From contig CAVVPN010000003.1 in NCBI GenBank assembly GCA_963750165.1, positions 3,392,001-3,456,000 of the forward strand: 64,000 nucleotides of DNA, written 5' to 3'. Positions 5,259 through 52,477 of the stretch are shown here, piece by piece (the first letter of the stretch is position 1; the number at the start of each line of letters is the position of its first letter). Below the pieces are notes generated by a model. It worked only from the letters and a program-made list of their open reading frames with translations, did not search any database and had not been told where the DNA came from. The translations under genes and the position numbers were made by a program. Source of the DNA: an uncultured Gemmataceae bacterium (lineage in GTDB: Bacteria > Planctomycetota > Planctomycetia > Gemmatales > Gemmataceae).

Positions 5259-5276
5259 GCGAAAGGAGTTGCCCCA

Positions 5277-5975: not shown

Positions 5976-5983
5976 CCGCCGCG

Positions 5984-7018: not shown

Positions 7019-7264
7019 GGCTGCCCCTCGATCATTCGCCCGAGAGTTCGCTTACCCCAGGTGAATACAGGACGCAAGTTTTGTGCCACGAGCCGGCGTG
7101 CCCCTCGGGAAGAGCATGGGATCGCGCGCTCATTTCGGAGCACGTCACTGGTTGCGACTCGACCTGCAAACGGGTAACATCGTTCGTAACCCCACGGGCC
7201 TTTGCTCACCCACCAGGCCCCCGCAAAATGAAAACAGTGGTCTCCCACCAGAAAGGGCCCTCCC

Positions 7265-8671: not shown

Positions 8672-8856
8672 TGTTCCTCCCTCCGGGGCCGTTTTCCGCA
8701 GCCGGTGCCGGGCGCAGCAAATGAGTTCGGCTGCCCAGGATGCCCTGGCTTCAGGTTGGCCACCGTGCCCAGTGCCTGTGGGCAACAAGAGCGGTTCGCA
8801 GGCGGAGTGCGCACGGGTGGGGTGGCGGACACGGCCTGACGTGCGGCGGCCTGCAC

Positions 8857-9026
8857 TGCCACAGCAAGGGGGCCAAGGGGGCCAAGGGGGCCAACTTTTT
8901 CATACGTCGAGATGCGGCGCCCTGGCTCCGTAGGGGTGGCACGGCGCGACAGCCAACGGCGGCGGTTGCCACAGCAAGGGGGCCAAGGGGGCCAACGTTT
9001 TCACACGTCGAGAAGCGGCGCCTGGC
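8857..9026. repeat. Two ~60-70 bp direct repeats containing tandem CAAGGGGGC 9-mers (3 and 2 copies)
   Basis: TGCCACAG-(CAAGGGGGC)3-CAACTTTTTCATACGTCGAGATGCGGCGCCCTGGC at 8857-8926 and TGCCACAG-(CAAGGGGGC)2-CAACGTTTTCACACGTCGAGAAGCGGCGCCTGGC at 8967-9026. Confidence 0.9.
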
Positions 9027-9309
9027 AGCGCGGGCTTGCCGTTCGTGGTCCTTGCGACGGCAAACTGCTCTATTCTGGCAGGGGCAGACGGTGGTTACAT
9101 TTTCATCGAAACTTTTTGTCTCCGGGAGGGTTTATCTCTTACCAATAATCATCTGCGATTCATTAAGCCCCCCTAACACTTGGAGGGATTCATGGGTGCC
9201 GGCGTCCTGCGCTGATACCATTGAGGACCGTTCTGGGGGCGCGATCCTTTCCTGCACTCTCGTGGTAGTCGGCGTGTGCCCAAAGATGGGGGCATGCGCG
9301 CCGCCTTTG

Positions 9310-9412
9310 AGAAGATTAAAAAAAATTCCGAAATTCTGGTTTAACTCTGGAAATTCAAAAAAAAAGGGTTACAACATTTATTCAGCAAGATTTTTGGCTT
9401 GATACTACCAAG
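9310..9412 (+). promoter_or_regulatory. AT-rich putative promoter region of the giant adhesin gene
   Basis: Strongly AT-rich island with A8 (9318-9325) and A9 (9357-9365) tracts and GAAATTC repeated at 9330 and 9350. It lies directly upstream of the structured leader. Confidence 0.45.
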
Positions 9413-39300: not shown

Positions 39301-40081
39301 CCTGCCCGCCGACGCCATCCTCACCAACGGCACCGGCACCTTCAGCGCCACCCTGAAGACTGCGGGCAACCAGACGCTGACCGCCACCGACACGTTCACC
39401 AGCAGCATCACCGGCACCAGCGCCGCCATCGCCGTCAGCGCCGTCGCCCTGGACCATTTCCTGGTCAGCGCCCCGGCCGGCGCCACCACGGGCACCGCCT
39501 TCTCCTTCACCGTCACCGCCGTGGACGCCTACAACAACGCCACCTCCGGTTACAGCGGCACCGTCCACTTCACCAGCAGCGACGCCGCCGCCGTCTTGCC
39601 GGCCAACAGCATGCTGACCAACGGCGTCGGCACCTTCAGCGCCACCCTGAACACCAGCGGCGCCCAGACCCTGACCGCCACTGACACCGTCACCAGCAGC
39701 CTGACCGGCACCAGCACTGCCATCGCCGTGCGCAGGCCTGGTGGTCACCACCTTCACGCCCACGGCCACCGGCTTCACCGTCGCCTTCAGCAAACCGTTC
39801 GTCAACAGCAGTGCCAGCCCGATCAACCTCTACGACGCCGGCTCCGCCGGCTACGGCGCCGCCGACGTCACCCTGGTCGGCACGTCCGGCACCATCAAGG
39901 GCTCGCTCGTCATCGATCCGAGCAACCAGAGCTTCACCTTCCTCAAGACCGATGTCGTGGCTGGCGGCGGCACCACCGGTCTGCTACCAGCCGGCACCTA
40001 CACGGCGACCATCGTCAGCGGCAGCACTGCCTTCAAGGACGCCACCGGCGCCCCGCTCGACGGCAACAACGACGGCATTAA
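30239..40081 (+). CDS. Giant adhesin segment 3: end of beta-helix plus 8 Ig-like repeats
   Basis: Beta-helix repeats run to ~37280 and include the terminal GAILGGTG..GGTVNPG motif. ATHF.V.AP...YxGTVHFT repeats follow at ~37295-39730. Residues after ~39731 are out of frame. Confidence 0.85.
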   Translation: MGIGQLQLGAPDSYSGATTVAAGTLVLNNVGQLLNTSVVNLNPSVQAVVTPNPAIPALTLDNTGFNVSGRLMSGATPANINFNNAVLSFVGNNTPGVLTAETLGTVTLNPGASFISSANGLGVGAMAQLTINTLNRNQGSTLGFLPGVSQNFSQNISNLNTPFNQILVNSFGPGAAMVNGILPYATVASVGATPNQFDFATTVAAGTASSIAAFTNYKSSLAAAGPTDTVRLTASETLASNKVVNAILFAGTTTNNGVGSITINQNTGSNNLFTLGVTSGAIMAMGNNTLTITGGTVDFGSAEGILNENNANITFNSAIAGTNGLTISATAAGQIALNPSFNGSITGGNGVGSNTYLGNTWINGTGTGLVLTNSISGFSNGTVVMTAGELGNNNNANLAIPNPFVFNNSLVSLGDNNRTTFTGPMTLTGTNTFSLANFGNGNQNPVVLGGVISGTGSLNLIQGGNGLILANPDNIYSGGTGLTTGVGGSNGQLQVTASSVLDSAGHLLSGPLGTGPLNLMGGVLQNTNTNGNTTEYGANLVTLYNAVNILSTPTSINNAAATGQTTIIGGGNADGGGDINLAGPVTLAGNTNTISVSNNVNFSISGVISGTGALTKINTGLLFLDGANTFTGGDNITAGTVIVGNSAALGTGLVTINGGTLQDSGRNSYTFANQVVMSGAATINAINPATTLTFSGNISGTGALTKTGPGKIALTTADTYTGATTITGGTLALSGGGALLNTASLAVSNISALTPAPSTYVVPSPGGVNAVQTLTFSTGITGGTFTLTFNGLTTAPITFSATAATLAANIQAALTALPNVGPNNTLVAGTGPFTVTFQNGLGGTNVPTLTFNAAGLAGGSITSIITTTTGDTAQTNSVGGTLTLDNTAGNNINRLNDAAAITLAGGTLNVLGAANAASTELIGAITLNAGQSQIQTTAGTGGSIALTSSATLTRNAGSDINFVAGGGQTLGSATNQIIFNVAPTTLLTGTTNGIVKAATVTDAATGGFNLATATGTTTSSIAAVTTYQTLMAGGGNAATDNVLVTASTAMTAADTVQAILIRGDSITVSGSALTVGSGLIASSGGTTTGDTISAPVTLAAVEGVIVNGAGSTLNLTGAITGTAGITFGGSGTTNVGVANTYTGTTTLNSGTLGLGIATALASGTGQVNVDGGTLQTTAAGLTIANPVALNTGPGALTVTGTNSLTLSGVLSGAGSLIENMPAVTSTIAASPTGATETGAQVTITTTAAHPFVVGETVTIAGVGVTGFNGTFEITSVPSTTSFTYTDPNVGLAASGGGTATATAALTLAGAAANTFTGSTIVDNGALVLGKTAAVGAVVGPLVIGDGVGGTNADAVIQTGQSGQVTNSVVVNSSGVLNLIGVNDTLASLLLNGGNVSTLPVAAAAAFGTLTLGANVESLAAATPASISGLLVLNGNRIFDVNPGGSGNDLNVSSLISGGNEITKTGTGTLTFNGYQANTYSGQTTVAEGTLNLGMQGNLPAYAGPLVVGDYGNTATVQITTPFNQTNSGQSVYVTNSGVLDLSATPVSQTIGTLEVRGGSVNGPANNIVQDIVLNATNTTVTGGTFTLSFNGQTTPAIAQNGAIVASANGAVVDGSGNVTIVTTGVHGFTVGQMVTIAGVGVAAYNGTYMITAVPTPFTFTYMDTAAIGSAASGGGTVNLATIATGGAVELGNVVTITTAAAHGFTVGQTVMIQGITPTGYNGIYTITAVPTPTSFTYTSPYYGLANSTAAGTAFLATNSALAIQNALSQLPNVGAGNVTVTPIQGIGLNFQVTFQGNLLTGSTVPLLSLASVPTGAANATANVGPALVVTGATVTGLASTTSGSISSNLLLNNNPTGFNVADSGSVQALNISGAIVNNTGAAVGITKSGAGTLVLSGNLPNTYSGTQTVTVAGTSTNNVGTYVQSGTLLLADTGGLALPSTTVVVGDGLAGSGTTKGATLRYQATFQSIVFGTNVTGGTFALTFNGQTTAAISWSTTAATLASNIQSALAALSNVGTGNVTVTGTGPFTVTFAPSVANQTPMFVASNLLTPSGTAISVNSQLPANAGVQVNSSGLYDLNGNANQILSGSILPQVLGATTTALNISGGTVSTGSTGLLTLGGNVFGQANLSNVVPATINGNLSLGGVTRLVDVQAGALPGAPNDMIINAQISNGGAAAGLNKLDAGKLQLAGNNTYTGPTTVSAGTLLIDGTQPNSPVTVLTGAILGGTGTAGGITTLGGTVNPGDPITSKATLNAGATNLSSGNLTVQLSGSTGSFSSDLLNLGSNILTLGGSSTLTVDLAGLTTTTGAPITVIQDGGNTGTFTHVLVTNNPNNFQVSVSYTANAVKVTVNAAPATHFTVTAPSSASRGVAFDITVTALDSFNNVATGYVGTVHFTTTDMGMGVVVPANYTFVAGDNGVHTFTGGVTLVTAGNQTVTATDTTTSTITGTSAAIAVTAPAAATHFGVTAPATASVGSAVSFTVTALDASNNPTTGYTGTVHFTSTDGTATLPANAMLTNGVGTFNVTFQTAGNQTVTATDTTTSSITGTSNTVMVSTSSNPATHFLVSAPSSATAGAAFSFTVTALDASNNPVSGYLGTVHFTKSDSGTGSAVPADYTFVVGDHGVHTFTGGATFVTAGSQTLTATDTVTSTITGSATVTVAGATAATFTVSAPSSATAGTAFLFTVTAKDSFGNTATGYAGTIHFTSTDAAAILPANATLTNGTSAFIATMKTTGSQTLTATDTMTSTINGTSGTITVSAAAATTFTVTAPATATAGAAFNLTVTAKDAYGNTATGYVGTVHFTKSDSGTGATVPVDYTFVAGDHGVHTFTGGVTLVTAGSQTVTATDTTTSSLTGTSGPITVSAATVAAFAVTAPTSAKAGVAFTFVVTAKDAFGNTVTGYLGTVHFTKTDAGTGSAVPANYTFVAGDSGMHTFTGGATLVTVGSQTISATDTVTSSITGTSAAIAVSAAAASHFTVSAPATANAGTAISFTVTALDAFNNTATDYSGTIHFTSTDVKAVLPADAILTNGTGTFSATLKTAGNQTLTATDTFTSSITGTSAAIAVSAVALDHFLVSAPAGATTGTAFSFTVTAVDAYNNATSGYSGTVHFTSSDAAAVLPANSMLTNGVGTFSATLNTSGAQTLTATDTVTSSLTGTSTAIAVRRPGGHHLHAHGHRLHRRLQQTVRQQQCQPDQPLRRRLRRLRRRRRHPGRHVRHHQGLARHRSEQPELHLPQDRCRGWRRHHRSATSRHLHGDHRQRQHCLQGRHRRPARRQQRRH

Positions 40082-41633
40082 CGGCGACAACTACGTCGCC
40101 ACCTTCACCGTGGCGGCCAACACCGCGGTGGTGGTGACCGTGCCCGACTTCGCCCGCGGCCCCGACGCCACCGACCCGATCAACGTTCCCAACAACAGCA
40201 CCAATGGCATCCCCATTGCCCTGAGCAACGGCCTCGGCGTCACCGACGGCAGCTTCGTGCTCAACTACAACGCCAACCTGCTGACCATCACCGGCGGCAC
40301 CGTCAACTCCGCCCTCACCGGGGCCACCTTCACCGTCAGCACCTCGGGCACCGGCACCAGCGCTCAGGCCACCATCACCTTCCACAGTCCGACGGCGCTG
40401 GCAACTGGGGCGGTGCGGCTCGGCGGCCTGACGGCCACGGTGCCGGCCAACGCGCCATACAAGTCCAAGGAACTGCTGCACTGGGCGAGCCTGTCGCTCA
40501 ACGGTGGTGCGATCACGGCGGTGGGCGACGATGCCCTCCATGCGGTGGCGTTCCTGGGCGACACCTCGGGAGACGGCACCTACACCAGCGCCGACAGCGT
40601 GCTGCTCTCGAACGTGGCGGCGGCCAAGGACAGCGGCTTCGCGGCCTTCCCGATCCTCGACCCGGTCATCCTCGCCGACCTCAACGGCAACGGCCTGGTG
40701 CAGTCCAACGACGGCGGCCTGCTCAACAATTACCTGGGCGGCGCCACGGTCGCTCAGATACCCAACTACCCCGGCGCTCCGTCCAACAACCCGTCCGGCC
40801 CCGACCCGACGCTCAGCATCCCCACCAACCTGAGCGCGAGTCCCGGCGGCACGGTGACGGTGCCGGTCAACATCGACGACCCGCACCCCAAGGGCAGCAC
40901 CGGCATGACCCAGGCTCTGCTGGCGCTGACCTACGACCCCACGGTCTTTACGGTGACCGCGGCCGACATCCACCTCGGGACGGTGCCGGCGGCGGGCAGC
41001 GGCTGGGTGTTGCAGACCCGGGTGGACGCGACCACGGGCCAGATTGCCATCATCCTGTTCAGCGCCACGCCCATCGCCAGCTCGGCCGGCGGCAGCCTGG
41101 TGACCATCGACTTCCACGTCAAGCCTGGAGCGGCACCGGGGGCCAGCCCGATTAACCTGGCGGCCGAGGTCAACCCCAACGGTCAGGGGGTGGTCCGCAC
41201 GGCGGTCGATGACAACCAGGGGCCGTACACGCTGACCCCGGCGCCGACCGACTCCCCCACCGACCCGGGCGTGGACGGGCTGGTGAAGCTGACCGCCGCC
41301 GACCCGGCACCGGCGGCCCCGGTCCCGGTTGTCAAGCCCAGCGGCGCGGTCGGGCCGGCGGCATTCGTGAACTCCGGCTACGGGGCCGTCCCGCCGGTCA
41401 ACCCGGTGGTCGCCGTGACGACGCCGGGCAACGGTTTGTCGTTGCCCGGGGGCGTGGCCAAGGCGCTGACGGATCAGGTATTCATCGACCTGAACGACGG
41501 GACGAACGGCACACCGCCCGCGGTGCAGACGCCGCACGCATGGGACGCCCTGGTCTGGGACGGGGCGGGTGAAACCGACTGGGTGGCAGATCTCAACCCT
41601 GCCCAGTCGGGCGCCGGCAAGGCCATTCTGTAA
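39741..41633 (+). CDS. Giant adhesin segment 4: Ig-like domain, cohesin-like, dockerin, cohesin, Pro-rich/acidic tail
   Basis: Dockerin duplicated Ca-binding loops GDTSGDGTYTSAD / ADLNGNGLVQSND (~40557-40739). Cohesin motif PGGTVTVPVNI...LTYDPTVFTV...GSLVTIDFHVK (~40800-41290). Confidence 0.8.
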   Translation: MVTTFTPTATGFTVAFSKPFVNSSASPINLYDAGSAGYGAADVTLVGTSGTIKGSLVIDPSNQSFTFLKTDVVAGGGTTGLLPAGTYTATIVSGSTAFKDATGAPLDGNNDGINGDNYVATFTVAANTAVVVTVPDFARGPDATDPINVPNNSTNGIPIALSNGLGVTDGSFVLNYNANLLTITGGTVNSALTGATFTVSTSGTGTSAQATITFHSPTALATGAVRLGGLTATVPANAPYKSKELLHWASLSLNGGAITAVGDDALHAVAFLGDTSGDGTYTSADSVLLSNVAAAKDSGFAAFPILDPVILADLNGNGLVQSNDGGLLNNYLGGATVAQIPNYPGAPSNNPSGPDPTLSIPTNLSASPGGTVTVPVNIDDPHPKGSTGMTQALLALTYDPTVFTVTAADIHLGTVPAAGSGWVLQTRVDATTGQIAIILFSATPIASSAGGSLVTIDFHVKPGAAPGASPINLAAEVNPNGQGVVRTAVDDNQGPYTLTPAPTDSPTDPGVDGLVKLTAADPAPAAPVPVVKPSGAVGPAAFVNSGYGAVPPVNPVVAVTTPGNGLSLPGGVAKALTDQVFIDLNDGTNGTPPAVQTPHAWDALVWDGAGETDWVADLNPAQSGAGKAIL

Positions 41634-41644
41634 GCGGCGATCAC

Positions 41645-41682
41645 TTTCCCGGCCCGGGTGCGTGGCACACCGGGCCGGGAAA
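41645..41682. terminator. GC-rich stem-loop after the adhesin stop
   Basis: 13-bp perfect inverted repeat TTTCCCGGCCCGG/CCGGGCCGGGAAA starting 12 nt after the TAA. There is no U-tract, so it may be an mRNA stability hairpin rather than an intrinsic terminator. Confidence 0.5.
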
Positions 41683-41971
41683 AGCTCAGGGCCGTTTATT
41701 CCGGATGCGCTGGTCGTAACGGCGGCTTTTCCCCGGCCCTCCGGATTGAATGAACAGAAGGCATTTCCCGATTTTGTCGGTGAACTGGGGAAGTTGCGAA
41801 AAAAAAATGGGCTCCGGGCCGATACTGGGCCGGTAAGGCTGTGTTAATTCGTGTAAGCTAGATAAACTATTGCGGATTTGTCATGGCACCCAGGGAAGGG
41901 GCATTCGCCCCGGCATCTGACCCCGACAGTCAGCAATCCCTCTCCGAGTCTTCACACAAGCGAGTAACATC

Positions 41972-44900
41972 ATGTTCTCCTCCTGGTGGCGCGGCCTGAC
42001 AGCACGGGGCAACAAGAGTGGGACTTACCGCCGCGGGCGTTCCCGGTCCCGCGGGCGGTTGTGGGCCGAGACGCTGGAGGATCGCGTCGTGCCCGCCAGT
42101 TCCGCCTACTTCAGCATGCCGACCAACCTCGCGGCCAACCAGGGCACCACGATCACCGTGCCCGTGAGCATCAACAACCTCACCGACACCAGCGGCAACC
42201 TGGGCCTGAACTCGGCCGATGTGGTCCTGACCTACGACCCGACCGTCTTCAGCGTCGGCAGCGCCGATGTCACCCAGGGGTCGCTGCTCACCAACGCGCC
42301 CCCCAACGGCACCTGGGCCTTCACCCCCAACGCCAGCACCCCGGGCGAAATCGACATCAGCCTGTTCAGCTCCGACCTCGGCCACGACGTCACCACTTCG
42401 GCGGGCGGGGTGCTGGCCAACATCCAGTTCCACGTCAAGGGCAGTGCCCCCACCGGCAGCAGCACCATCCATGTGGTGGTGCCGCCGGCGACCTCTCCCA
42501 GCAACGGTCTCAGCAGTGACGCCACCCCGCACTCCGGTCCCGATTCCATCCAGGGCGCAGCCGACGGCTACACCCTGAGCCCGGCCGACCAGCAGGACGG
42601 CGTCATCAACGTGCAGAACTTTGCCCCGATCAGCACCCTGAGCGTGCCCACGAACGTCACGGCCATGCCCGGTGGCACCGTTACAGTGGCGGTGAACGTC
42701 AGCAACCCCGATCCCAACGGCAGCGCGGGCATGACCTCGGCGGACGCGGCCATCCTGTTCGACCCGGCCGTGCTGAGCGTGGCGGCCACGGGGGCAGTGG
42801 CTGCTGGCAGCGTCGTGCCGACCAGCGGCTGGAACGCCTTTTACGGCGTCGATACCACCCACACCAACCCGATCGACTCGACGAAGGATACGCTCGGCCT
42901 GCACCTGGTCAACACCAACGGCACGCCGCTGACGAGCACCACGGCAGGCAGCCTGTGGTTGGTCACCTTCAACGTCGTCGCTGGGGCCAGTGGCACAACG
43001 ATCCTGAACCTGGTGCCGAGCGTCCAGGTGGGCTCCTCGACCACCAGCACCAACGTCACCGGCGCCAACAAGGTCTACCAGTTGACCCCGGCGCCGACGA
43101 ACGCCACCACGGACGCGGTGGACGGCAGCGTGACCGTGTCTGCGGTCGCGACCGCGACGCATTTCAGCGTCAGCGGCCCGTCCACGGCCACGGCCGGGAC
43201 TCCCGTCAGCTTCACGGTGACCGCCCTGGACGCCAGCAACAACCCGGTCAGCGGCTACACGGGCATGGTGCATTTCACCAGCAGCGACGGCCAGGCCGTG
43301 CTGCCCGCCGATGCGACGCTGACCAACGGCACCGGCACGTTTAACGTCACGTTCCACACGTCCGGCAGCCAGACCCTGACCGCCACCGACACGGTGATCA
43401 GCAGCATCACCGGCACCAGCGGCCCGGTCACCGTCAGCGCCACCGCCGCCACGCACTTCAGCGTCACCGCTCCGGCCACGGCCACGGCGGGCAGCGCCTT
43501 CAGCTTCACGGTGACGGCCCTGGACGCCTTCAACAACACCGCCAGTGGCTACACCGGGACGGTCCACTTCACCAGCAGCGACGGCCAGGCCGTGCTGCCG
43601 GCCAACAGCACCCTGACCAACGGCACCGGCACGTTCAACGTCACCCTCAAGACGGCCGGCAACCAGACGCTCACGGCCACCGACACGGTGACCAGCACGA
43701 TCACCGGCACCAGCGCCGCCATCGCCGTCAGCGCCGCGGCGGCCACGCACTTCAGCGTCACCGCCCCGAGCAGCGCCACGGCGGGCAGCGCCTTCAACTT
43801 CACGGTGACGGCGCAGGACGCCTTCAACAACATCGCCACGGGCTACACGGGCACCGTCCATTTCACCAGCAGCGATGGCCAGGCCACGCTGCCGGCCAAC
43901 GGCACGCTCACCAGCGGCACCGGCACCTTCAGCGCCACGCTGAAGACTTCGGGTAGCCAGACGCTGACCGCCACCGACACGGTGACCAGCACGATCACCG
44001 GCACCAGCGCCGCCATCGCCGTCAGCGCCGCCGCCGCGACGCACTTCACGGTCACGGCCCCGGCCACGGCCACGGCGGGCAGCGCCTTCACCTTCACGGT
44101 GACGGCGCTGGACGCCTTCAACAACACCGCCACCGGCTACACGGGCATGGTCCACTTCACCAGCACGGACAGCCAGGCGGTGCTGCCAGCGGACGCCACC
44201 CTGACCAACGGCACCGGCACCTTCACCGTCACGCTCAAGACCACCGGCAACCAGACGCTGACCGCTACCGACACGGTGACCAGCACGATCACCGGCACCA
44301 GCGCCGCCATCGCCGTCAGCGCCGCCGCCGCGACGCACTTCACGGTCACGGCCCCGGCCACGGCCACGGCGGGCAGCGCCTTCAGCGTCACGGTCACAGC
44401 CCTGGACGCCTTCAACAACACCGCCAGTGGCTACACCGGGACGGTCCACTTCACCAGCAGCGACGGCCAGGCGGTGCTGCCCGCCAACAGCACCCTGACC
44501 AACGGCACCGGCACGTTCAACGTCACCCTCAAGACGGCCGGCAACCAGACGCTGACCGCCACCGACACGGTGACCAGCACGATCACCGGCACCAGCGCCG
44601 CCATCGCCGTCAGCGCCGCGGCGGCGACGCACTTCAGCGTCACCGCCCCGGCCACGGCCACGGCGGGCAGCGCCTTCACCTTCACGGTGACGGCGCAGGA
44701 TGCCTTCAACAACACCGCGTCGGGCTACAGCGGCACCGTCCACTTCACCAGTACCGACGCCACCGCCACGCTGCCGGCCAACAGTACGCTCACCAACGGC
44801 GTCGGCACCTTCAGTGCCACCCTGCACACGGCCGGCAGCCAGACGATTACTGCCACCGATACGGTGACCAGCACTATCACCGGCACCAGCAACGCCATCA

Positions 44901-47900
44901 ACGTCGGCACCTTCCCCGCCACGCACTTCGCCGTCAGCGCCCCCAGCAGCGCCACGGCGGGGACCGCCTTCAGCTTCACGGTGACAGCCCTGGACGCCAG
45001 CAACAACCCGACCGCAGGGTACAGCGGCACGGTGCATTTCACCAGCAGCGATGGCCAGGCCGTGCTGCCGGCGGACGCCACGCTGACCAACGGTGTCGGC
45101 ACCTTTACCGTCACGCTCAAGACCGCCGGCAACCAGACGATTACCGCCACCGACACGGTGACCAGCAGCATCACCGGCACCAGCGCTGCCATCGCCGTCA
45201 GCGCCGCCGCCGCCACGCACTTCACCGTCACTGCCCCGGCCACGGCCACCGCCGGGACGGCATTCAACTTCATGGTGACGGCCCTGGACGCCTTCAACAA
45301 CACCGCCACCGGCTACACGGGCATGGTCCACTTCACGAGCACGGACAGCCAGGCGGTGCTGCCGACGGATGCTACCCTGACCAGCGGCACCGGCACCTTC
45401 AGCGCCACGCTGAAGACGGCCGGCAGCCAGACGCTGATCGCTACCGACACGGTGACCAGTTCCATCACCGGCAGCAGCAACAGCATCGCCGTGAGCGCCG
45501 CCGCCGCCAGCCACTTCAGCGTCACCGCCCCCAGCAGCGCCACCGCGGGCAGCGCCTTCAGCGTCACGGTGACGGCCCTGGATGCCTTTAACAACACAGC
45601 GACGGGCTACACCGGCACGGTGCATTTCACCAGCAGCGACAGCACCGCCGTGCTGCCGGCCAACAGCACCCTGACCAACGGCGTCGGCACCTTCAACGTC
45701 ACGCTGAAGACCGCCGGCAGCCAGACGCTGACCGCCACCGACACGGTGACCAGCACGATCACCGGCACCAGCGCCGCCATCGCCGTCAGCGCTGCCGCCG
45801 CCACCCACTTCAGCGTCAGCGCCCCGGCCACGGCCACGGCGGGCAGCGCCTTCAGCTTCACGGTGACGGCCCTGGACGCCTTCAATAATACTGCCACGGG
45901 CTACACGGGCACCGTCCACTTTACCAGCAGTGACGGCCAGGCCGTATTGCCGACCGACAGCCCTCTCACCAGCGGCACCGGCACCTTCAACGCCACGCTG
46001 AAGACATCGGGCAACCAGACGCTGACCGCTACCGACACGGTGACCAGCACGATCACCGGCACCAGCGCCGCCATCGCCGTCAGCGCCGCCGCCGCCACGC
46101 ACTTCACCGTCACCGCCCCGGCCACGGCCACCGCCGGGACGGCATTCAACTTCACGGTCACGGCCCTGGACGCCTTCAACAACACCGCCACCGGCTACAC
46201 GGGCATGGTCCACTTCACGAGCACGGACAGCCAGGCTGTGCTGCCGGCGGACGCCACCCTGACCAGCGGCACCGGCACCTTCAGCGCCACGCTGAAGACT
46301 TCGGGCAGCCAGACGCTGATCGCTACCGACACGGTGACCAGCACTATCACCGGCAGCAGCAACAGCATCGCCGTGAGCGCCGCTGCCGCCAGCCACTTCA
46401 GCGTCACCGCCCCCAGCAGCGCCACCGCGGGCAGCGCCTTCAGCGTGACGGTGACGGCCCTGGACGCCTTTAACAACACCGCCACCGGCTACAGCGGCAC
46501 CGTCCACTTCACCAGCAGTGACGGTCAGGCCGTGCTGCCGGCCAACAGCACCCTGACCAACGGCGTCGGCACCTTCAACGTCACGCTGCAGACCGCCGGC
46601 AACCAGACGATTACCGCCACCGACACGGTGACCAGCACGATCACCGGCACCAGCGCCGCCATCGCGGTCAGCGCCGCCACCGCCACGCACTTCAGCGTCA
46701 CCGCCCCGGCCACGGCCACGGCGGGCAGCGCCTTCAGCTTCACGGTGACGGCCCTGGACGCCTTCAATAATACTGCCTCAGGCTACACGGGCACCGTCCA
46801 CTTTACCAGCAGTGACGGCCAGGCGGTGTTGCCGACCGACAGCCCCCTCACCAGTGGCGTCGGCACCTTCAACGCCACGCTGAAGACGGCCGGCAGCCAG
46901 ACCCTCACCGCTACCGACACCGTGACCAGCACCATCACCGGCACCAGCGCCGCCGTCACGGTCAGCGCCGCGGCGGCCACGCACTTCAGCGTCACCGCCC
47001 CGAGCAGCGCCACCACGGGCGGCCCCTTCAGCGTGACGGTGACGGCCCGGGACGCCTTTAACAACACCGCCAGCGGCTATCTGGGGACGGTCCACTTCAC
47101 GACGACGGACAGCGGCAGCGGCGCGGCGGTGCCCGCCGATTACACCTTCGTGGCCGGCGACAACGGCGCCCACACGTTTACCAACGGCGTCACCCTGGTC
47201 ACCGCCGGCAGCCAGTCGGTCACCGCCACCGACACCGTCACCAGCAGCATCACCGGCAGCGCCACCATCACGGTCAGTGCCGTGTCGGCCACGCATTTCA
47301 GCGTCAGCGGCCCGGCCACGGCCACGGCCGGCACCGCCGTCAGCTTCACGGTGACCGCCCTGGACGCCAGCAACAACCCGGTCAGCGGCTACACCGGCAT
47401 GGTGCATTTCACCAGCAGCGACGGCCACGCGGTGCTGCCGGCCGATGCGACGCTCACCAACGGCACCGGCACGTTTAACGTCACGTTCCAGACGGCGGGC
47501 AGCCAGACCCTCACCGCCACTGACACGGTCACCAGCAGCATCACCGGCACCAGCGGCCCGGTCACGGTCAGCGCCGCGGCGGCCACCCACTTCGCCGTCA
47601 GCGCCCCGGCGACCGCCAACGCGGGCAGCGCCTTCACCTTCACGGTCACGGCGCTGGATGCGTTCAATAACGCCGCCACCGGCTACACGGGCACGGTGCA
47701 TTTCACCAGCAGCGATGGCCAGGCCGTGCTGCCCGCCGACAGCACCTTGACCAGCGGTGTCGGCACCTTCAGCGCCACCCTCAAGACGGCCGGCAACCAG
47801 ACGCTAACCGCCACTGACACGGTGTCCAGTTCGATCACCGGCACCAGCGCCGCCATCGCCGTCAGCGGCGTGGCGGCCACGCACTTCAACGTCACCGCCC

Positions 47901-50900
47901 CGGCGAACGCCACGGCGGGCAGCGCCTTCAGCTTCACGGTCACGGCGCTGGACCCGTTCAACAACACGGACACGGACTACACGGGCACGGTCCACTTCAC
48001 CAGCAGCGACGGCCAGGCGGTGTTGCCCGCCGACAGCACCTTGACCAACGGCGTCGGCACCTTCAACGCCACCCTCAAGACGGCCGGCAGCCAGACCCTC
48101 ACCGCTACCGATACCGTCACCAGCACCATCACCGGCACCAGCGCCGCCGTCACGGTCAGCGCCGCGGCGGCCACCCACTTTAGTGTCAGCGCCCCGAGCA
48201 ACGCCACCACGGGCGGCCCCTTCAGCGTGACGGTGACGGCCCAGGACGCCTTTAACAACACCGCCACCGGCTATCTGGGGACGGTCCACTTCACGACGAC
48301 GGACAGCGGCAGCGGCGCGGCGGTGCCCGCCGATTACACCTTCGTGGCCGGCGACAACGGCGTCCACACGTTTACCAACGGCGTCACCCTGGTCACCGCC
48401 GGCAGCCAGTCGGTCACCGCCACCGATACGGTCACCAGCAGCATCACCGGCAGCGCCACCATCACGGTCAGTGCCGTGGCGGCCACGCATTTCAGCGTCA
48501 GCGGCCCGGCCACGGCCACGGCCGGCACCGCCGTCAGCTTCACGGTGACCGCCCTGGACGCCAGCAACAACCCGGTCAGCGGCTACACCGGCATGGTGCA
48601 TTTCACCAGCAGCGACGGCCAGGCGGTGCTGCCGGCCGATGCGACGCTCACCAACGGCACCGGCACGTTTAACGTCACGTTCCAGACGGCGGGCAGCCAG
48701 ACCCTCACCGCCACTGACACGGTCACCAGCAGCATCACCGGCACCAGCGGCCCGGTCACCGTCAGCGCCGCGGCGGTCACCCACTTCGCCGTCAGCGCCC
48801 CGGCGACCGCCACCGCGGGCAGCGCCTTTAACTTCACGGTCACGGCTCTGGATCAGTTCAACAACACGGACACGGGCTACACGGGCACGGTCCACTTCAC
48901 CAGCAGCGACGGCCAGGCGGTATTGCCCGCCGACAGCACCTTGACCAACGGCGCTGGCACCTTCAGCGTGACGCTCAAGACCGCTGGCAGCCAGACGCTG
49001 ACCGCCACTGACACCGTCACCAGTTCCATCACCGGCACCAGCGCCGCCATCACCGTCAGCGCCGCGGCGGCGACGCACTTCGCCGTCACCGCCCCCAGCA
49101 ACGCCACGGCGGGCAGCGCCTTCAGCTTCACGGTCACGGCGCTGGACCCGTTCAACAACACAGACACGGGCTACACGGGCACGGTCCACTTCACCAGCAG
49201 CGATGGCCAGGCGGTATTGCCCGCCGACAGCACCTTGACCAGCGGCACTGGCACCTTCAACGCCACGCTGAAGACAGCCGGCAGCCAGACCCTCACCGCT
49301 ACCGATACCGTCACCAGCACCATCACCGGCACCAGCGCCGCCATCAGCGTCAGCGCCGCGGCGGCCACCCACTTGAGTGTCAGCGCCCCGAGCAACGCCA
49401 CCACGGGTGCCCCCTTCAGCGTGACGGTGACGGCCCTGGACCCGTTCAACAATACGGACACGGGTTATCTGGGGACGGTCCACTTCACGACGACGGACAG
49501 CGGCAGCGGCGCGGCGGTGCCCGCCGATTACACCTTCGTGGCCGGCGACAACGGCGCCCACACGTTCACCAACGGCGTCACCCTGGTCACCGCCGGCAGC
49601 CAGTCGGTCACCGCTACCGACACCGTCACCAGCAGCATCACCGGCAGCGCCACCATCACGGTCAGTGCCGTGGCGGCCACGCATTTCAGCGTCAGCGGCC
49701 CCACCACGGCCACGGCCGGGGTCGCCTCCAGTTTCACGGTGACCGCCCTGGACGCCAGCAACAACCCGGTCAGCGGCTACACCGGCACGGTCCACTTCAC
49801 CAGCAGCGACGGCCAGGCCGTGCTGCCGGCCAACGCCACGCTGACCAACGGTGTCGGCACGTTTAGCGTCACGTTCCACACGTCCGGCAGCCAGACCCTC
49901 ACCGCCACTGACACGATCACCAGCAGCATCACCGGCACCAGCGCCGCTGTCGCCGTCAGCGCCGCCGCCGCCACCCACTTCAGCGTCAGCGCCTCCAGCG
50001 CCGCCACGGCGGGCAGCGCCTTCAGCTTCACGGTCACGGCCCTGGATCCGTTCAACAACACTGCCACCGGCTACACCGGCACGGTGCATTTCACCAGCAG
50101 CGACGGCCAGGCCGCCCTGCCCGCCGACAGCGCCCTCATTAGCGGCGTCGGCACCTTCAGCGCCACCCTCAAGACCGCCGGCAACCAGACCCTCACTGCC
50201 ACCGACACGGTGTCCAGTTCGATCACCGGCAGCAGTGGCACCGTCAACGTGAGCCCCGCCGCCGCCAGCCACTTCAGCGTCAGCGCCCCGGCCACGGCCA
50301 CGGCGGGCAGCGCCTTCAACTTCACGGTCACGGCCCTGGACGCCTTCAACAACACCGCCACAGGCTACACCGGCACCGTCCACTTCACCAGCTCCGACAC
50401 CGCCGCCACCCTGCCGGCGGACGCCACCCTGACCAGCGGCACCGGCACCTTCAGCGCCACCCTGCAGACGGTCGGCGCCCAGACGCTGACCGCCACCGAC
50501 ACCGTGACCAGCAGCATCACTGGCACCAGCGCCGCCATCACGGTCAGCAGCACCAACCCCAACACCACCTTCCTGAACAATGCCTACCTGGATCTGCTCG
50601 GCCGGCCCATTGATCCGGCCGGCCTGTCGTACTGGTCGTCCGTCCTCGATCAGGGCTACTCCCGCACCTACGTCCTCGCGGGCATCCAGGCCAGCAACGA
50701 GTACAAGACGGATCTCGTCACTAAACTGTTCACGCAACTGCTCGGCCGCGCTCCCGACACCACCGACCTGACCAACTGGGTGTTGTTCCTCAACCAGGGC
50801 GGCACCGTGGAAGAACTCAAGGCGGGCATCATGGGCAGCGCCGAGTTCCTGGCCCACAACGGCGGCACCGACACCGGCTTCCTGCAGGGCGTCTACCAGG

Positions 50901-52477
50901 CTGCCCTCGGCCGCTCCGCCTCCGCCAGCGAGTTGACCGGCTGGCAAGCGGAACTGACGGCCGGGACCTCGCTCTACGGCGTCGCGCTGCAAATCCTGAC
51001 CACTCCCGAGGCCTACCAGTTCTACGTCAAGAGCGAGTTCGCCAGCCTGCCGCACGCCACCGCCCCCGCCAGCTCTGCCAGCCAGTTCGTCACCCTGCTC
51101 CAGCAGGGGGTGCGCGACGAGTCCATCGTCGCTGGCATCTTCATCAACAACCTGGCCGGCTCGGCCAATTACGACGCGATCACCAAGACCGTGGCCTCCA
51201 GCAGCACGCCGCCGGACACGGGAAATGGCTTCCTGGCGCAGGTCTACCAGGACGTGCTGGGCCGGGCCATCGACGCGACCGGTCTGGCGAGCTGGTCGCC
51301 GCTGCTCGACGAGGGCATCTCCCAGCAGGACGTGGCGGCGGACATCCTGGCCACGCCGGAGGCGAACACGTACCTGGTGCAGGGGCTGTATACGCAGTTG
51401 CTGGGCCGGCCGGCGGACCCGACGGGCCTGGCGGGCTGGGTGGGGGTGCTGGCGCAGGGCGGCACCGTCGAACAGGTCAAGGCGGGCATCATGGGCACGG
51501 ACGAGTTCCTGACGCACAACGGCGGCACCGACACCGGCTTCCTGCAGGGCGTTTTCCAGGCCGCCCTCGGCCGCTCCGCCTCCGCCAGCGAGTTGGCCAA
51601 CTGGCAACAATTGCTGAACGCCGGCACGTCGCGTTCCAGCGTCGCGTTGTTTATCCTGACCTCCGACGAGGCCCACGGTTACCTGGTGCAGACCTACTAC
51701 CAGGACCTGCTGTTCCGTGACGGCCAGAGCGCCGAGGTGATCGGCAACGCCCTGGCCCTGAAGGGAATCGGGACCGACCAGTCGGTCGAGGCCGCGGTGC
51801 TGGGCTCGGCGGAGTATCTCTCCTACACCGACAGCAGCACGCTGAACAATCCGGTGCTGTCCACGGAGTCTGCCTTCCTGGGGCAGTTGTACCAGGACGA
51901 ACTGGGGCGGGCGATCAATGCGTCGGAGGAGGCGGGCTGGTCGTCGTTCCTGGCCCAGGGCACCACGCGCGCGATGGTGGCCGAGTCGGTCGTGAACTCG
52001 ACGGAGGCAGAGACATATCTGGTGCAGGGGCTGTACCAGCAGTTGTTGGGCCGGCCGGCGGACCCGACGGGCCTGGCGGGCTGGGTGGGGGTGCTGGCGC
52101 AGGGCGGCACCGTCGAACAGGTCAAGGCGGGCATCATGGGCACGGACGAATTCCTGGCGCACAACGGCGGCACCGACACCGGCTTCCTGCAGGGCGTCTA
52201 CCAGGCGGCCCTCGGCCGCTCCGCCTCCGCCGCCGAACTGGCCGGTTGGCAGCAACAGTTGGCGGCGGGTACGTCGCGGACGAGTGTCGCCCTGCAGATT
52301 CTGACCACCACGGAGGCCCGCGGCTACCTGGTGAGCAGCTTCTACCAGTCCCTGCTGCACCGCGCTCCCAACCCCACCGAGCAGGCGCAGGGGGCCGCCG
52401 CCCTCCAGTACGTCACCGACCAGGTTCTGGAGACGGCCATCCTCTCGTCGCGGGAATTCGACGTGAACCTGCAATGA
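41972..52477 (+). CDS. Scaffoldin-like surface protein: leader, two cohesin-like domains, 25 Ig-like repeats, DUF4214 repeats
   Basis: LWAETLEDRVVPA leader. Cohesin-like domains at ~42108-42615 and ~42635-43145. 98/104-aa repeats at ~43150-50555. FL...Y.D.LGR..D..GL..W motifs at ~50560-52470. Confidence 0.9.
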   Translation: MFSSWWRGLTARGNKSGTYRRGRSRSRGRLWAETLEDRVVPASSAYFSMPTNLAANQGTTITVPVSINNLTDTSGNLGLNSADVVLTYDPTVFSVGSADVTQGSLLTNAPPNGTWAFTPNASTPGEIDISLFSSDLGHDVTTSAGGVLANIQFHVKGSAPTGSSTIHVVVPPATSPSNGLSSDATPHSGPDSIQGAADGYTLSPADQQDGVINVQNFAPISTLSVPTNVTAMPGGTVTVAVNVSNPDPNGSAGMTSADAAILFDPAVLSVAATGAVAAGSVVPTSGWNAFYGVDTTHTNPIDSTKDTLGLHLVNTNGTPLTSTTAGSLWLVTFNVVAGASGTTILNLVPSVQVGSSTTSTNVTGANKVYQLTPAPTNATTDAVDGSVTVSAVATATHFSVSGPSTATAGTPVSFTVTALDASNNPVSGYTGMVHFTSSDGQAVLPADATLTNGTGTFNVTFHTSGSQTLTATDTVISSITGTSGPVTVSATAATHFSVTAPATATAGSAFSFTVTALDAFNNTASGYTGTVHFTSSDGQAVLPANSTLTNGTGTFNVTLKTAGNQTLTATDTVTSTITGTSAAIAVSAAAATHFSVTAPSSATAGSAFNFTVTAQDAFNNIATGYTGTVHFTSSDGQATLPANGTLTSGTGTFSATLKTSGSQTLTATDTVTSTITGTSAAIAVSAAAATHFTVTAPATATAGSAFTFTVTALDAFNNTATGYTGMVHFTSTDSQAVLPADATLTNGTGTFTVTLKTTGNQTLTATDTVTSTITGTSAAIAVSAAAATHFTVTAPATATAGSAFSVTVTALDAFNNTASGYTGTVHFTSSDGQAVLPANSTLTNGTGTFNVTLKTAGNQTLTATDTVTSTITGTSAAIAVSAAAATHFSVTAPATATAGSAFTFTVTAQDAFNNTASGYSGTVHFTSTDATATLPANSTLTNGVGTFSATLHTAGSQTITATDTVTSTITGTSNAINVGTFPATHFAVSAPSSATAGTAFSFTVTALDASNNPTAGYSGTVHFTSSDGQAVLPADATLTNGVGTFTVTLKTAGNQTITATDTVTSSITGTSAAIAVSAAAATHFTVTAPATATAGTAFNFMVTALDAFNNTATGYTGMVHFTSTDSQAVLPTDATLTSGTGTFSATLKTAGSQTLIATDTVTSSITGSSNSIAVSAAAASHFSVTAPSSATAGSAFSVTVTALDAFNNTATGYTGTVHFTSSDSTAVLPANSTLTNGVGTFNVTLKTAGSQTLTATDTVTSTITGTSAAIAVSAAAATHFSVSAPATATAGSAFSFTVTALDAFNNTATGYTGTVHFTSSDGQAVLPTDSPLTSGTGTFNATLKTSGNQTLTATDTVTSTITGTSAAIAVSAAAATHFTVTAPATATAGTAFNFTVTALDAFNNTATGYTGMVHFTSTDSQAVLPADATLTSGTGTFSATLKTSGSQTLIATDTVTSTITGSSNSIAVSAAAASHFSVTAPSSATAGSAFSVTVTALDAFNNTATGYSGTVHFTSSDGQAVLPANSTLTNGVGTFNVTLQTAGNQTITATDTVTSTITGTSAAIAVSAATATHFSVTAPATATAGSAFSFTVTALDAFNNTASGYTGTVHFTSSDGQAVLPTDSPLTSGVGTFNATLKTAGSQTLTATDTVTSTITGTSAAVTVSAAAATHFSVTAPSSATTGGPFSVTVTARDAFNNTASGYLGTVHFTTTDSGSGAAVPADYTFVAGDNGAHTFTNGVTLVTAGSQSVTATDTVTSSITGSATITVSAVSATHFSVSGPATATAGTAVSFTVTALDASNNPVSGYTGMVHFTSSDGHAVLPADATLTNGTGTFNVTFQTAGSQTLTATDTVTSSITGTSGPVTVSAAAATHFAVSAPATANAGSAFTFTVTALDAFNNAATGYTGTVHFTSSDGQAVLPADSTLTSGVGTFSATLKTAGNQTLTATDTVSSSITGTSAAIAVSGVAATHFNVTAPANATAGSAFSFTVTALDPFNNTDTDYTGTVHFTSSDGQAVLPADSTLTNGVGTFNATLKTAGSQTLTATDTVTSTITGTSAAVTVSAAAATHFSVSAPSNATTGGPFSVTVTAQDAFNNTATGYLGTVHFTTTDSGSGAAVPADYTFVAGDNGVHTFTNGVTLVTAGSQSVTATDTVTSSITGSATITVSAVAATHFSVSGPATATAGTAVSFTVTALDASNNPVSGYTGMVHFTSSDGQAVLPADATLTNGTGTFNVTFQTAGSQTLTATDTVTSSITGTSGPVTVSAAAVTHFAVSAPATATAGSAFNFTVTALDQFNNTDTGYTGTVHFTSSDGQAVLPADSTLTNGAGTFSVTLKTAGSQTLTATDTVTSSITGTSAAITVSAAAATHFAVTAPSNATAGSAFSFTVTALDPFNNTDTGYTGTVHFTSSDGQAVLPADSTLTSGTGTFNATLKTAGSQTLTATDTVTSTITGTSAAISVSAAAATHLSVSAPSNATTGAPFSVTVTALDPFNNTDTGYLGTVHFTTTDSGSGAAVPADYTFVAGDNGAHTFTNGVTLVTAGSQSVTATDTVTSSITGSATITVSAVAATHFSVSGPTTATAGVASSFTVTALDASNNPVSGYTGTVHFTSSDGQAVLPANATLTNGVGTFSVTFHTSGSQTLTATDTITSSITGTSAAVAVSAAAATHFSVSASSAATAGSAFSFTVTALDPFNNTATGYTGTVHFTSSDGQAALPADSALISGVGTFSATLKTAGNQTLTATDTVSSSITGSSGTVNVSPAAASHFSVSAPATATAGSAFNFTVTALDAFNNTATGYTGTVHFTSSDTAATLPADATLTSGTGTFSATLQTVGAQTLTATDTVTSSITGTSAAITVSSTNPNTTFLNNAYLDLLGRPIDPAGLSYWSSVLDQGYSRTYVLAGIQASNEYKTDLVTKLFTQLLGRAPDTTDLTNWVLFLNQGGTVEELKAGIMGSAEFLAHNGGTDTGFLQGVYQAALGRSASASELTGWQAELTAGTSLYGVALQILTTPEAYQFYVKSEFASLPHATAPASSASQFVTLLQQGVRDESIVAGIFINNLAGSANYDAITKTVASSSTPPDTGNGFLAQVYQDVLGRAIDATGLASWSPLLDEGISQQDVAADILATPEANTYLVQGLYTQLLGRPADPTGLAGWVGVLAQGGTVEQVKAGIMGTDEFLTHNGGTDTGFLQGVFQAALGRSASASELANWQQLLNAGTSRSSVALFILTSDEAHGYLVQTYYQDLLFRDGQSAEVIGNALALKGIGTDQSVEAAVLGSAEYLSYTDSSTLNNPVLSTESAFLGQLYQDELGRAINASEEAGWSSFLAQGTTRAMVAESVVNSTEAETYLVQGLYQQLLGRPADPTGLAGWVGVLAQGGTVEQVKAGIMGTDEFLAHNGGTDTGFLQGVYQAALGRSASAAELAGWQQQLAAGTSRTSVALQILTTTEARGYLVSSFYQSLLHRAPNPTEQAQGAAALQYVTDQVLETAILSSREFDVNLQ
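43154..50555 (+). repeat. Coding tandem array of 25 Ig-like units (22 x 294 bp, 3 x 312 bp)
   Basis: The His codon of the ATHF motif recurs at 43160, 43454, 43748 ... 46982 (294-bp spacing), then 47294 (+312) and onward to 50270. Confidence 0.95.

Follow-up and report, generated by a model that had tools for sequence, protein, structure and literature searches.

The Cag_2038 and Cag_2037 proteins of Chlorobium chlorochromatii have been proposed to bind each other, on the basis of a model, and to have a role in adhesion, as set out in the accessible part of a preprint (bioRxiv 10.64898/2026.03.19.712371). For Nemodlikiaceae, the available text of PMC6461901 describes a hypothetical 'planctosome' made of an anchor protein, an adaptor with dockerin and cohesin, and peptidases, and adhesion or polypeptide degradation is proposed for chains of ANME archaea, SRB partners and Ca. 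Stygibacter in the available sections of three further papers (PMC9012536, PMC10553843, PMC8542988). An assembly of cohesins and dockerins without cellulolytic function in a diderm, as the first-pass annotation read the present locus, had already been proposed in print. Many giant planctomycete proteins lack a recognised anchor, and the partners of non-cellulosomal dockerins are mostly untested. Here we analysed a window of 64,000 nucleotides (the whole stretch of DNA examined) from an uncultured Gemmataceae bacterium, in which two successive genes on the + strand, A and B, carry such modules. The four-domain cassette that ends A (X–Coh1–dockerin–Coh2) had no description in the literature searched, which covered few subscription papers.

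Gene A extends from 10067 to 41633 (about 10,520 codons) and is read in four reading-frame pieces (10067-14125, 14122-30324, 30239-40081 and 39741-41633). The 630-aa ORF at 39741-41633, initially taken to be a complete gene, is the last of these pieces, and a stand-alone gene at this position was rejected. The N-terminus of A carries the planctomycete-type export motif LEPLEDRTLL, and four PA14 domains follow at 11006..11236, 14704..15129, 21490..21741 and 27121..27372 (Pfam 40.9, 35.6, 43.2 and 33.0 bits, respectively). An L-type (legume) lectin-like domain at 15535..16083 matched Lectin_legB with 28.3 bits (cut-off 26.3), while its score against Lectin_L-type_dom, 49.6 bits, was under the cut-off of 78.3. 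From 14122 to 37150 we found PATR, or autotransporter-type, beta-strand repeats (PF12951 and TIGR02601 matches) with small domains inserted among them, and this stretch likely forms a beta-helix rod. Despite these repeats, a type V autotransporter was rejected for A: the C-terminal beta-barrel translocator was not found, since no barrel family was matched in Pfam and TIGR scans and the C-terminus consists of the cassette and a tail. Eight Ig-like repeats, identified by motif count and with Big_1 matches under the cut-off, occupy 37151..39730 and are of the same type as the stalk repeats of B.

To characterize the cassette, we scored cut-out domains against Pfam (cut-offs 24.1 for cohesin, PF00963, and 22.9 for Dockerin_1) and compared an AlphaFold2 model covering Coh1, dockerin and Coh2 (mean pLDDT 92.3, pTM 0.60) with solved structures. 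The X module (39741..40112; 124 aa) is an Ig-like beta-sandwich, all-beta in its structure model and conserved as part of the unit in the cassette alignment; it had no Pfam match and was assigned to no family in profile searches. Coh1 (40119..40541) scored 21.1 bits, under the cohesin cut-off, although its modelled fold was still that of a cohesin (Z 13.8, rmsd 2.3 over 124 to PDB 2w1n). It joins the dockerin without a linker, its conserved residues cluster at the dockerin junction, and A138–I310 was the strongest coupling between domains, which suggests that Coh1 is likely a stabiliser of the dockerin and not a receptor. The part of Coh1 that corresponds to the dockerin-binding face of cohesins is polar and variable. 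In cellulosomal X–dockerin dyads, the X module plays this stabilising role. The dockerin (40542..40775; 23.9 bits) matched PDB 2ccl_B in the model (Z 9.1, rmsd 1.6 over 62) and has two Ca-binding loops. Each loop keeps Asp at its positions 1 and 12 in A, and this pattern holds for 181 of 191 cassettes. A proline-rich linker (40776..40799) of conserved length follows. Among 114 matched sequences, 81 have an IP…GPDP span of 18-19 aa. The linker was the sole segment with pLDDT <50 in the three-domain model. Coh2 (40800..41300), a type I-like cohesin of the same class as those of B, scored 49.1 bits and matched PDB 4uyp_A (Z 16.5, rmsd 2.0 over 138, model). The pTM of 0.60, together with the high confidence outside the linker, is consistent with a rigid Coh1–dockerin unit and a free Coh2. 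The motifs quoted in the first-pass annotation were all at the positions given there, and its reading of a dockerin with cohesin-like domains was borne out by the Pfam scores (sub-threshold for Coh1) and, for A, by fold matches: the cohesin and dockerin domains of A and B are genuine. The tail of A (41301..41633) is Pro-rich and acidic, with no Pfam match and, by hydropathy (maximum 1.1), no transmembrane segment. In relatives, tails after the cassette have a median length of 117 aa, and many cassette tails, inspected by eye, finish with a brief acidic stretch of amphipathic character.

Gene B (41972..52477) is intact, encodes 3,501 aa and starts with a planctomycete export motif (Planc_extracel 13.5 bits, under the cut-off). 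Its two cohesins lie at 42101..42619 (61.3 bits) and 42632..43147 (35.2 bits), and the proposed homology to the last cohesin of A holds, with 39% identity over 173 aa (E 7e-26) for the second one. The stalk (43148..50548) has exactly the 25 Ig-like repeats first counted, as determined by motif count and profile scans, and is followed by a DUF4214 region (50549..52474; 284.5 bits), also confirmed, with nine stretches matched by Pfam and three blocks of ~210 aa; the matching Atlas clusters were DUF4214 as well. This region is a candidate cell-surface anchor. Profile scans agreed with the claim that neither A nor B has a catalytic domain, and B, with its two cohesins, is a multi-cohesin non-catalytic protein of the scaffoldin type. 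A paralog, B', has six cohesins as three near-identical pairs, which could be an assembly duplication.

The cassette is reused across this genome, with 15 copies in 14 ORFs, and it matched ~2,000 database clusters, some of them peptidase-fused. One copy here sits on a subtilase-family peptidase, and elsewhere it is joined to peptidases or a lipase; scans of the cassette loci of this genome other than A (10 of 13, some partly) gave Ig, PATR and propeller domains and one S8 domain. The view of the system as a non-enzymatic assembly thus stands for A and B themselves, but the peptidase and lipase fusions of the same cassette indicate that the system is not purely non-enzymatic. Homologs were labelled Planctomycetales, Pirellulaceae, Rhodoferax and Rhodobacteraceae. 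An Atlas search with the cassette returned unnamed or fragment clusters only, and a phylum-wide sample of 400 genomes, in each of which only seven candidates were scored, gave one partial match. Each cassette-type dockerin of this genome has a cohesin after it in its own chain. Six further Pfam dockerin matches were found outside cassettes in five giant ORFs, by which we rejected the idea that all dockerins of the genome belong to cassettes.

Taken together, the reading that we favour, at a probability of roughly 0.45, sees in A an adhesin-like giant with a dockerin that likely engages, by means of calcium, the cohesin of a different chain, and in B a two-cohesin Ig stalk that is likely one surface tether for A. 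Under this reading, A and B would leave the cell by means of the N-terminal export motif and Coh1 would pack against the dockerin, stabilising it. The dockerin would then engage Coh2-class cohesins in trans in the presence of calcium, the candidate partners being the cohesin pair of B, the six cohesins of B' and Coh2 of other cassette proteins, while the DUF4214 repeats of B would hold the stalk at the outer surface. Adhesins and some peptidases would in this way be joined into a surface layer. Since every cassette chain carries both a plug (the dockerin) and a socket (the cohesin), such a layer would form in preference to a private pairing of A with B, and B is not the sole possible partner, because no B-type gene adjoins 12 of the 14 ORFs with a cassette and A has a receptor-type cohesin of its own. 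A bolder version, which we consider possible yet rather unlikely, has the cassette as a polymerisation unit in which each dockerin enters the cohesin of the next chain, giving Ca-dependent chains or a mesh of giant planctomycete adhesins and peptidases seeded on multi-cohesin stalks like B. If true, this would be a surface polymer built by cohesin–dockerin contacts and not a hub of the cellulosome type, spread over ~2,000 protein clusters and unrecognised as a unit.

The binding surfaces were examined by sequence comparison. On strand 3, the B cohesins have S-A-D, which resembles the T-A-D and S-G-D of type I cohesins with solved structures, and the Asp position, mapped by sequence motif only, is Asp in both B cohesins and Leu in Coh2 of A. 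By its motif, this residue is the probable counterpart of Asp39 of the C. thermocellum cohesin. In that cohesin, Asn37 and Asp39 touch the dockerin, according to the available part of PMC5772552. Enrichment of the strand-3 Asp in free cohesins was rejected, as it was no commoner there (18/49) than in cassette cohesins (108/259; p 0.63). The two dockerin halves shared 203 identities at the recognition positions, which were picked after inspecting the cassette conservation data, as compared with 96 expected (z 13.5; 54 sequences, <50% identity), while five comparison positions gave 62 as compared with 53 expected (z 1.8). The halves of A's own dockerin are only partly symmetric. The symmetry between halves across these sequences is the kind described for dual-binding dockerins in the accessible text of PMC12484212 (section 3.1). 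Complex prediction for the B cohesin pair with Coh1–dockerin of A scored 0.26 and 0.00 (mark 0.32), with the controls unfolded, and counts neither for nor against binding.

A different arrangement, unlikely in our judgement, would have the dockerin close onto the Coh2 that its own chain carries, or a closed dimer arise by a swap between chains, the B cohesins then serving other dockerins or being structural. The dockerin and Coh2 do nearly always occur together, the full cassette being present in 139 of the 150 best matches (partly by search construction), the linker length is tightly conserved, and the genome has other dockerin-bearing giants. However, closure in cis is not predicted by the AlphaFold2 model, given the pTM of 0.60 and the disordered linker (global scores only). 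Mean-field coevolution on 191 cassettes, which has low power for dockerin–Coh2, recovered mainly intra-domain pairs (top inter-domain coupling A138–I310), and dockerin–Coh2 contacts were at noise level (best z 5.8 as compared with 7.3 for a Coh1–Coh2 pair).

The first-pass annotation had B alone capturing A, with the dockerin of A specific for the B cohesins, and we regard such a dedicated pair as quite improbable. A cassette gene is followed by a B-type gene at four loci in three genera (twice in this genome, G000, and in G023 and G088), so that the order of the pair recurs at a paralogous locus and in two other genera; a locus scan of the genome contigs returned only two loci. Of the five stand-alone B-type genes identified, four come immediately after a cassette gene (the exception is in G108), and in G128, G064 and G044 a single gene, read across frameshifts in each case, has a cassette together with the cohesin head of the B type. 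The adjacency at the four loci, the Ig repeat type shared by A and B, and the Leu in Coh2 of A at the strand-3 Asp position all favour the pair. Conversely, a stand-alone B-type gene follows the cassette in just 2 of the 14 ORFs that carry one here and at 2 of the 38 cassette loci inspected in relatives, and a third close paralog (C3:2565765), with a cassette 84% identical, has no adjoining B; the 12 ORFs without a B neighbour indicate that the cassette does not need an adjacent B. A and B are also separated by a 338-nt gap with a strong hairpin (41645..41682) just past the stop codon of A (-41.4 kcal/mol, z -5.0 for the region), which has no T-run on the + strand and was not called a terminator; a promoter and terminator scan of this interval found nothing. 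The first-pass idea that B captures A is in keeping with the folds, the recurring order and the strand-3 Asp of B, but is too narrow for the cassette as a whole.

It is about equally doubtful that the cohesin–dockerin links are real while B does not fix the assembly to the cell, with DUF4214 and the other B-type C-termini acting in export or matrix binding and the acidic tail of A perhaps being its own sorting signal. B-type genes end in DUF4214, FG-GAP or dockerin-like regions, three unrelated domains, of which the latter two were seen in relatives, and this genome has 32 ORFs with DUF4214-like matches; the acidic end motifs seen by eye on cassette tails point the same way. The suggested resemblance of DUF4214 to RsaA was not borne out by sequence, which also suits this alternative: the RsaA_NTD profile (PF19198) had no match in this genome at E <= 1 while it matched the Caulobacter control, and no RsaA chain was among the PDB matches. 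On the other hand, the tail of A lacks a membrane segment, and the available part of a preprint locates a DUF4214 protein, Psh of Pseudomonas putida, at the cell surface, proposing O-antigen binding from modelling and inference (10.64898/2026.09.02.748959).

Gene A shifts frame at ~14068, ~30225 and ~39733. Its paralog at C3:3184541-3218776 is open over 11,412 aa and lacks the last of these breaks, and several other giant genes of the assembly have similar isolated frame changes, as sequencing error would give; errors of the assembly probably account for all three breaks. That this copy is a true pseudogene, with B serving other cassette proteins only, is the least likely reading, since the three frame changes (0/3 in a homopolymer run) are set against 31.5 kb with zero in-frame stops, a GC3 of 0.88-0.96 in all 1.5-kb bins without a frame change, and those lone changes in other giant genes.

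Our main explanation draws on the fold matches, the conserved Asp of the Ca loops, the symmetry of the dockerin halves, the S-A-D of the B cohesins, the model with its confident Coh1–dockerin and free Coh2, the B-type genes directly behind cassette genes or merged with a cassette, and the O-antigen binding proposed for Psh. Several of these observations also count against it, namely the rarity of B neighbours, the lack of dockerin–Coh2 coevolution and of strand-3 Asp enrichment, the six extra dockerins as alternative ligands for B, the missing RsaA_NTD match, the modelling and inference behind O-antigen binding by Psh, the post hoc choice of symmetry positions, the partial symmetry of A's own dockerin and the three breaks of A as assembled.

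In comparison with known systems, the Cag_2038/Cag_2037 pair is similar in layout, being adjacent diderm genes of which the first encodes an Ig-rich protein with its dockerin at the C-terminus and the second an Ig-rich protein with its cohesin at the N-terminus. Unlike A and B, that pair, as far as the available text goes, has a single cohesin and dockerin, is exported by RTX/T1SS and includes a region predicted to be an alginate epimerase/lyase, with no X–Coh–Doc–Coh cassette or family of plug-plus-socket chains described. The planctosome is likewise a planctomycete, non-cellulolytic cohesin–dockerin assembly whose adaptor has both modules, but its available description gives a lamin-tail anchor and a Doc–HYR–Coh adaptor and no giant lectin/beta-helix adhesin or DUF4214 stalk; profile scans found no lamin-tail, P-domain or Doc–HYR–Coh architecture in A or B, which resemble the planctosome just in their general outline. 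The ANME, SRB and Ca. Stygibacter proteins similarly have a dockerin and several cohesins per chain, although they belong to other lineages with other anchors, and no fixed four-domain cassette is reported in the sections available. A cellulosome was rejected, as no dockerin-bearing cellulases or hemicellulases and no CBM-bearing scaffoldin were found in A, B or the scanned cassette loci. The clostridial cellulosome (PDB 4uyp, 3kcp, 2ccl) nonetheless shares with A and B the same folds, the two Ca loops and the symmetric dockerin face, B resembling an anchoring scaffoldin and A an adaptor, while A and B differ in having no recognised cellulase or CBM3, in the cohesin fold of the dockerin-fused module and in the cohesin that comes after each dockerin of the cassette type. 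Small, well-predicted domains (Coh1–dockerin, Coh2 and the B pair) and 15 natural copies in one genome make partner choice, self-polymerisation and DUF4214 anchoring directly testable, and, if borne out, a cohesin-fold stabiliser of a dockerin and plug-and-socket chains would mean wider uses of these modules than in the systems described.

The gene A (window 10067–41633, +) carries near its C-terminus a four-domain cassette consisting of an X module, a cohesin-fold domain (Coh1), a dockerin (Doc) and a second cohesin (Coh2). The downstream gene B (41972–52477, +) is uninterrupted and encodes 3,501 aa; a pair of cohesins is followed by 25 Ig repeats and by DUF4214 repeats, the composition claimed for it in the first-pass annotation, whose quoted motifs were all found in the sequence. 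The DUF4214 stretches number nine. Of the excised domains, A's last cohesin scored 49.1 bits against Pfam and those of B 61.3 and 35.2 (cut-off 24.1), and A's dockerin 23.9 (cut-off 22.9), while A's first cohesin-like domain, at 21.1 bits, stayed below the cohesin cut-off. Homology of A's last cohesin to those of B was likewise upheld, with 39% identity to B's second.

Coh1–Doc–Coh2 was modelled with AlphaFold2 from a 45-sequence alignment; the mean pLDDT was 92.3 and the pTM 0.60, the Doc–Coh2 linker being the sole segment with pLDDT <50. The modelled domains found solved counterparts in a structure search: type I cohesins for Coh2 (Z 16.5, rmsd 2.0), a cohesin of Clostridium perfringens for Coh1 (Z 13.8, rmsd 2.3) and 2ccl_B for the dockerin (Z 9.1, rmsd 1.6). 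Since no linker separates Coh1 from the dockerin, Coh1's conserved residues gather at that junction, and the top inter-domain coupling in the coevolution analysis joins Coh1 A138 to Doc I310, we infer that Coh1 is a stabiliser of the dockerin. The pTM would suit a rigid Coh1–Doc unit beside which Coh2 is free, as judged from summary numbers only.

The dockerin appears to be functional. In 181 of 191 cassettes, both loops kept Asp at positions 1 and 12. In 54 sequences with <50% identity, the dockerin halves were identical at positions 9, 10, 11, 14, 15, 17, 18 and 21 in 203 cases (96 expected) and at comparison positions 2, 8, 13, 16 and 19 in 62 (53 expected), both sets having been picked after residue conservation across the 191 cassettes had been viewed. 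Positions 10, 11, 17, 18 and 22, the recognition positions of dockerins in the literature, were each elevated in symmetry (z 3.6–11.4); the halves of A's own dockerin are only partially symmetric. Symmetry between the halves is described as a hallmark of dual-binding dockerins (PMC12484212).

The cassette is a general module. This genome holds 38 cohesin matches and 15 cassettes in 14 ORFs, with only two B-type genes (cohesin-headed Ig stalk genes like B). In a family survey, 27 of 250 genomes had cassette profile matches, some partial, and the profile matched 1,979 clusters (50% identity, E ≤ 1e-30). Of the best 150, 139 had all four domains in order, in part a product of how the search was built. 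The cargo is chiefly Ig, cadherin-like, FG-GAP and Calx-beta domains, and includes enzymes: S8, M12B or metallophosphoesterase domains occurred in 4 of 26 proteins scanned from the best 150, and peptidase or lipase families in 12 of 120 homologues listed. The proposed non-enzymatic character thus held for A and B, in which no catalytic domain was recognised, but not for the cassette at large, which in this genome is borne by one protein with an S8 domain (52.5 bits) and by a second that shares S8 motifs without a Pfam match. An N-terminal subtilase/sedolisin-like domain (EEALDV or EITLDV, GGTS motifs) was seen in the cassette proteins at C3:2456493–2462204 and C3:756197–765991. A C-terminal block of ~1,300 aa, comprising the cassette, an additional cohesin and a terminal FWRLFGD dockerin-like domain interrupted by an inserted domain, is nearly identical in five giant proteins (C3:756197, C3:2973510, C11:1210340, C12:112706 and C12:556201), which suggests recent module shuffling.

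The most likely role of the cassette is that of a calcium-dependent linker: its dockerin would bind Coh2-class cohesins of other chains, B and its paralogue B′ would serve as tethers, and chains bearing both plug (dockerin) and socket (cohesin) would extend the assembly. Against this reading count the absence of Doc–Coh2 coevolution across the cassettes, the lack of strand-3 Asp enrichment in free cohesins, and six further dockerin matches in five giant ORFs of the genome, which are possible B ligands. Non-cassette dockerins, mostly internal, lie in the giant ORFs at C4:235127, C3:556149, C3:1377831, C3:1695691 and C11:2077909.

A dedicated A–B pair is one rival reading. Both B-type genes of this genome directly follow a cassette gene. 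The A′–B′ locus (C3:3184541–3238831; L130, L131, L085) repeats the order: A′ stays open over 11,412 aa and has PA14 and lectin domains and PATR repeats, and B′ has three near-identical cohesin pairs, >40 Ig repeats and DUF4214. The survey of downstream genes covered 38 loci (43 cassette rows less 2 duplicates and 3 with <1.5 kb downstream), top matches rather than a random sample, and a cohesin-headed gene followed in four: two stand-alone (relatives G023 and G088) and two, both in G064, with a cassette of their own. In G023, a 10,631-aa A-type protein precedes one with two cohesins, a different Ig type and FG-GAP repeats; in G088, the B-type gene, read through frameshifts, follows a cassette gene and encodes a pair of cohesins and Ig repeats, with a C-terminus that is dockerin-like. 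Besides the two B-type genes here and those of G023 and G088, a fifth, truncated one in G108 has no cassette gene directly upstream. The A→B order thus recurs in the paralogous locus, G023 and G088, but the other 12 of the 14 cassette ORFs here have no B neighbour; from these counts, B-type genes usually adjoin a cassette gene and cassette genes rarely adjoin a B-type gene. In the tandem array at L081–L082 (G064, C16:225001–247200), which has several frameshifts, each gene has cohesin heads and a C-terminal cassette.

Closure of the dockerin in cis or as a dimer is another rival; the coevolution analysis, which had low power, gave no Doc–Coh2 coupling above noise.

The assembly might also be unanchored. 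A lacks a recognised barrel over its whole length, and its 110-aa tail after the cassette has no membrane segment, in line with the earlier description. DUF4214 membership was confirmed for B, whose repeats are a candidate anchor. Their supposed resemblance to RsaA was not borne out at the sequence level: the RsaA_NTD profile had no matches in this genome and matched the Caulobacter control, and the PDB search, a comparison by sequence, returned no RsaA chain. A preprint describes a surface role for an RTX–DUF4214 protein of Pseudomonas putida and, from modelling, proposes O-antigen binding (10.64898/2026.09.02.748959). One protein, P0240, combines DUF4214 repeats and a dockerin cassette. Both A and B start with a planctomycete export motif, consistent with the label Gemmataceae bacterium of the nearest named homologues; no secretion system was recognised within the window.

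That A is a real pseudogene at this locus is the weakest rival: the frame changes near 14068, 30225 and 39733, but there are no in-frame stops, GC3 of the coding frame is high throughout, A′ (215 kb away) is uninterrupted across the position of A's last junction, and isolated changes of similar kind occur in other giant genes of the assembly, so that we infer assembly errors. The ORF at 39741–41633, annotated initially as gene A, exists and is the continuation of a coding stretch beginning at 10067; the whole has four PA14 domains, one L-type lectin-like domain and eight Ig repeats, and PATR repeats are numerous. A strong hairpin (41645–41682), with a T-run on the minus strand only, lies right after A's stop, and an AT-rich stretch follows before B; the two genes may have separate transcripts. 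A Ser/Thr kinase with TPR repeats (52592–55537, −) is convergent with B. Another large secreted protein, of 2,590 aa, is encoded at 56128–63900 (−); it has a planctomycete export motif as well as CARDB and FG-GAP repeats. Upstream of A, 3948–9402 (+) holds an EPSP synthase, a Uma2-family nuclease, a DUF1501 protein and two unassigned ORFs.

Literature searches turned up no description of the fixed four-domain cassette; the supplements of PMC6461901 may bear on its novelty. Non-cellulolytic cohesin–dockerin assemblies have already been proposed for planctomycetes (the planctosome, PMC6461901), the adjacent Chlorobium pair Cag_2038/Cag_2037 (10.64898/2026.03.19.712371), ANME and their partners (PMC9012536, PMC10553843) and Ca. 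Stygibacter (PMC8542988), and the A–B locus is a real, testable variation on these known assemblies.
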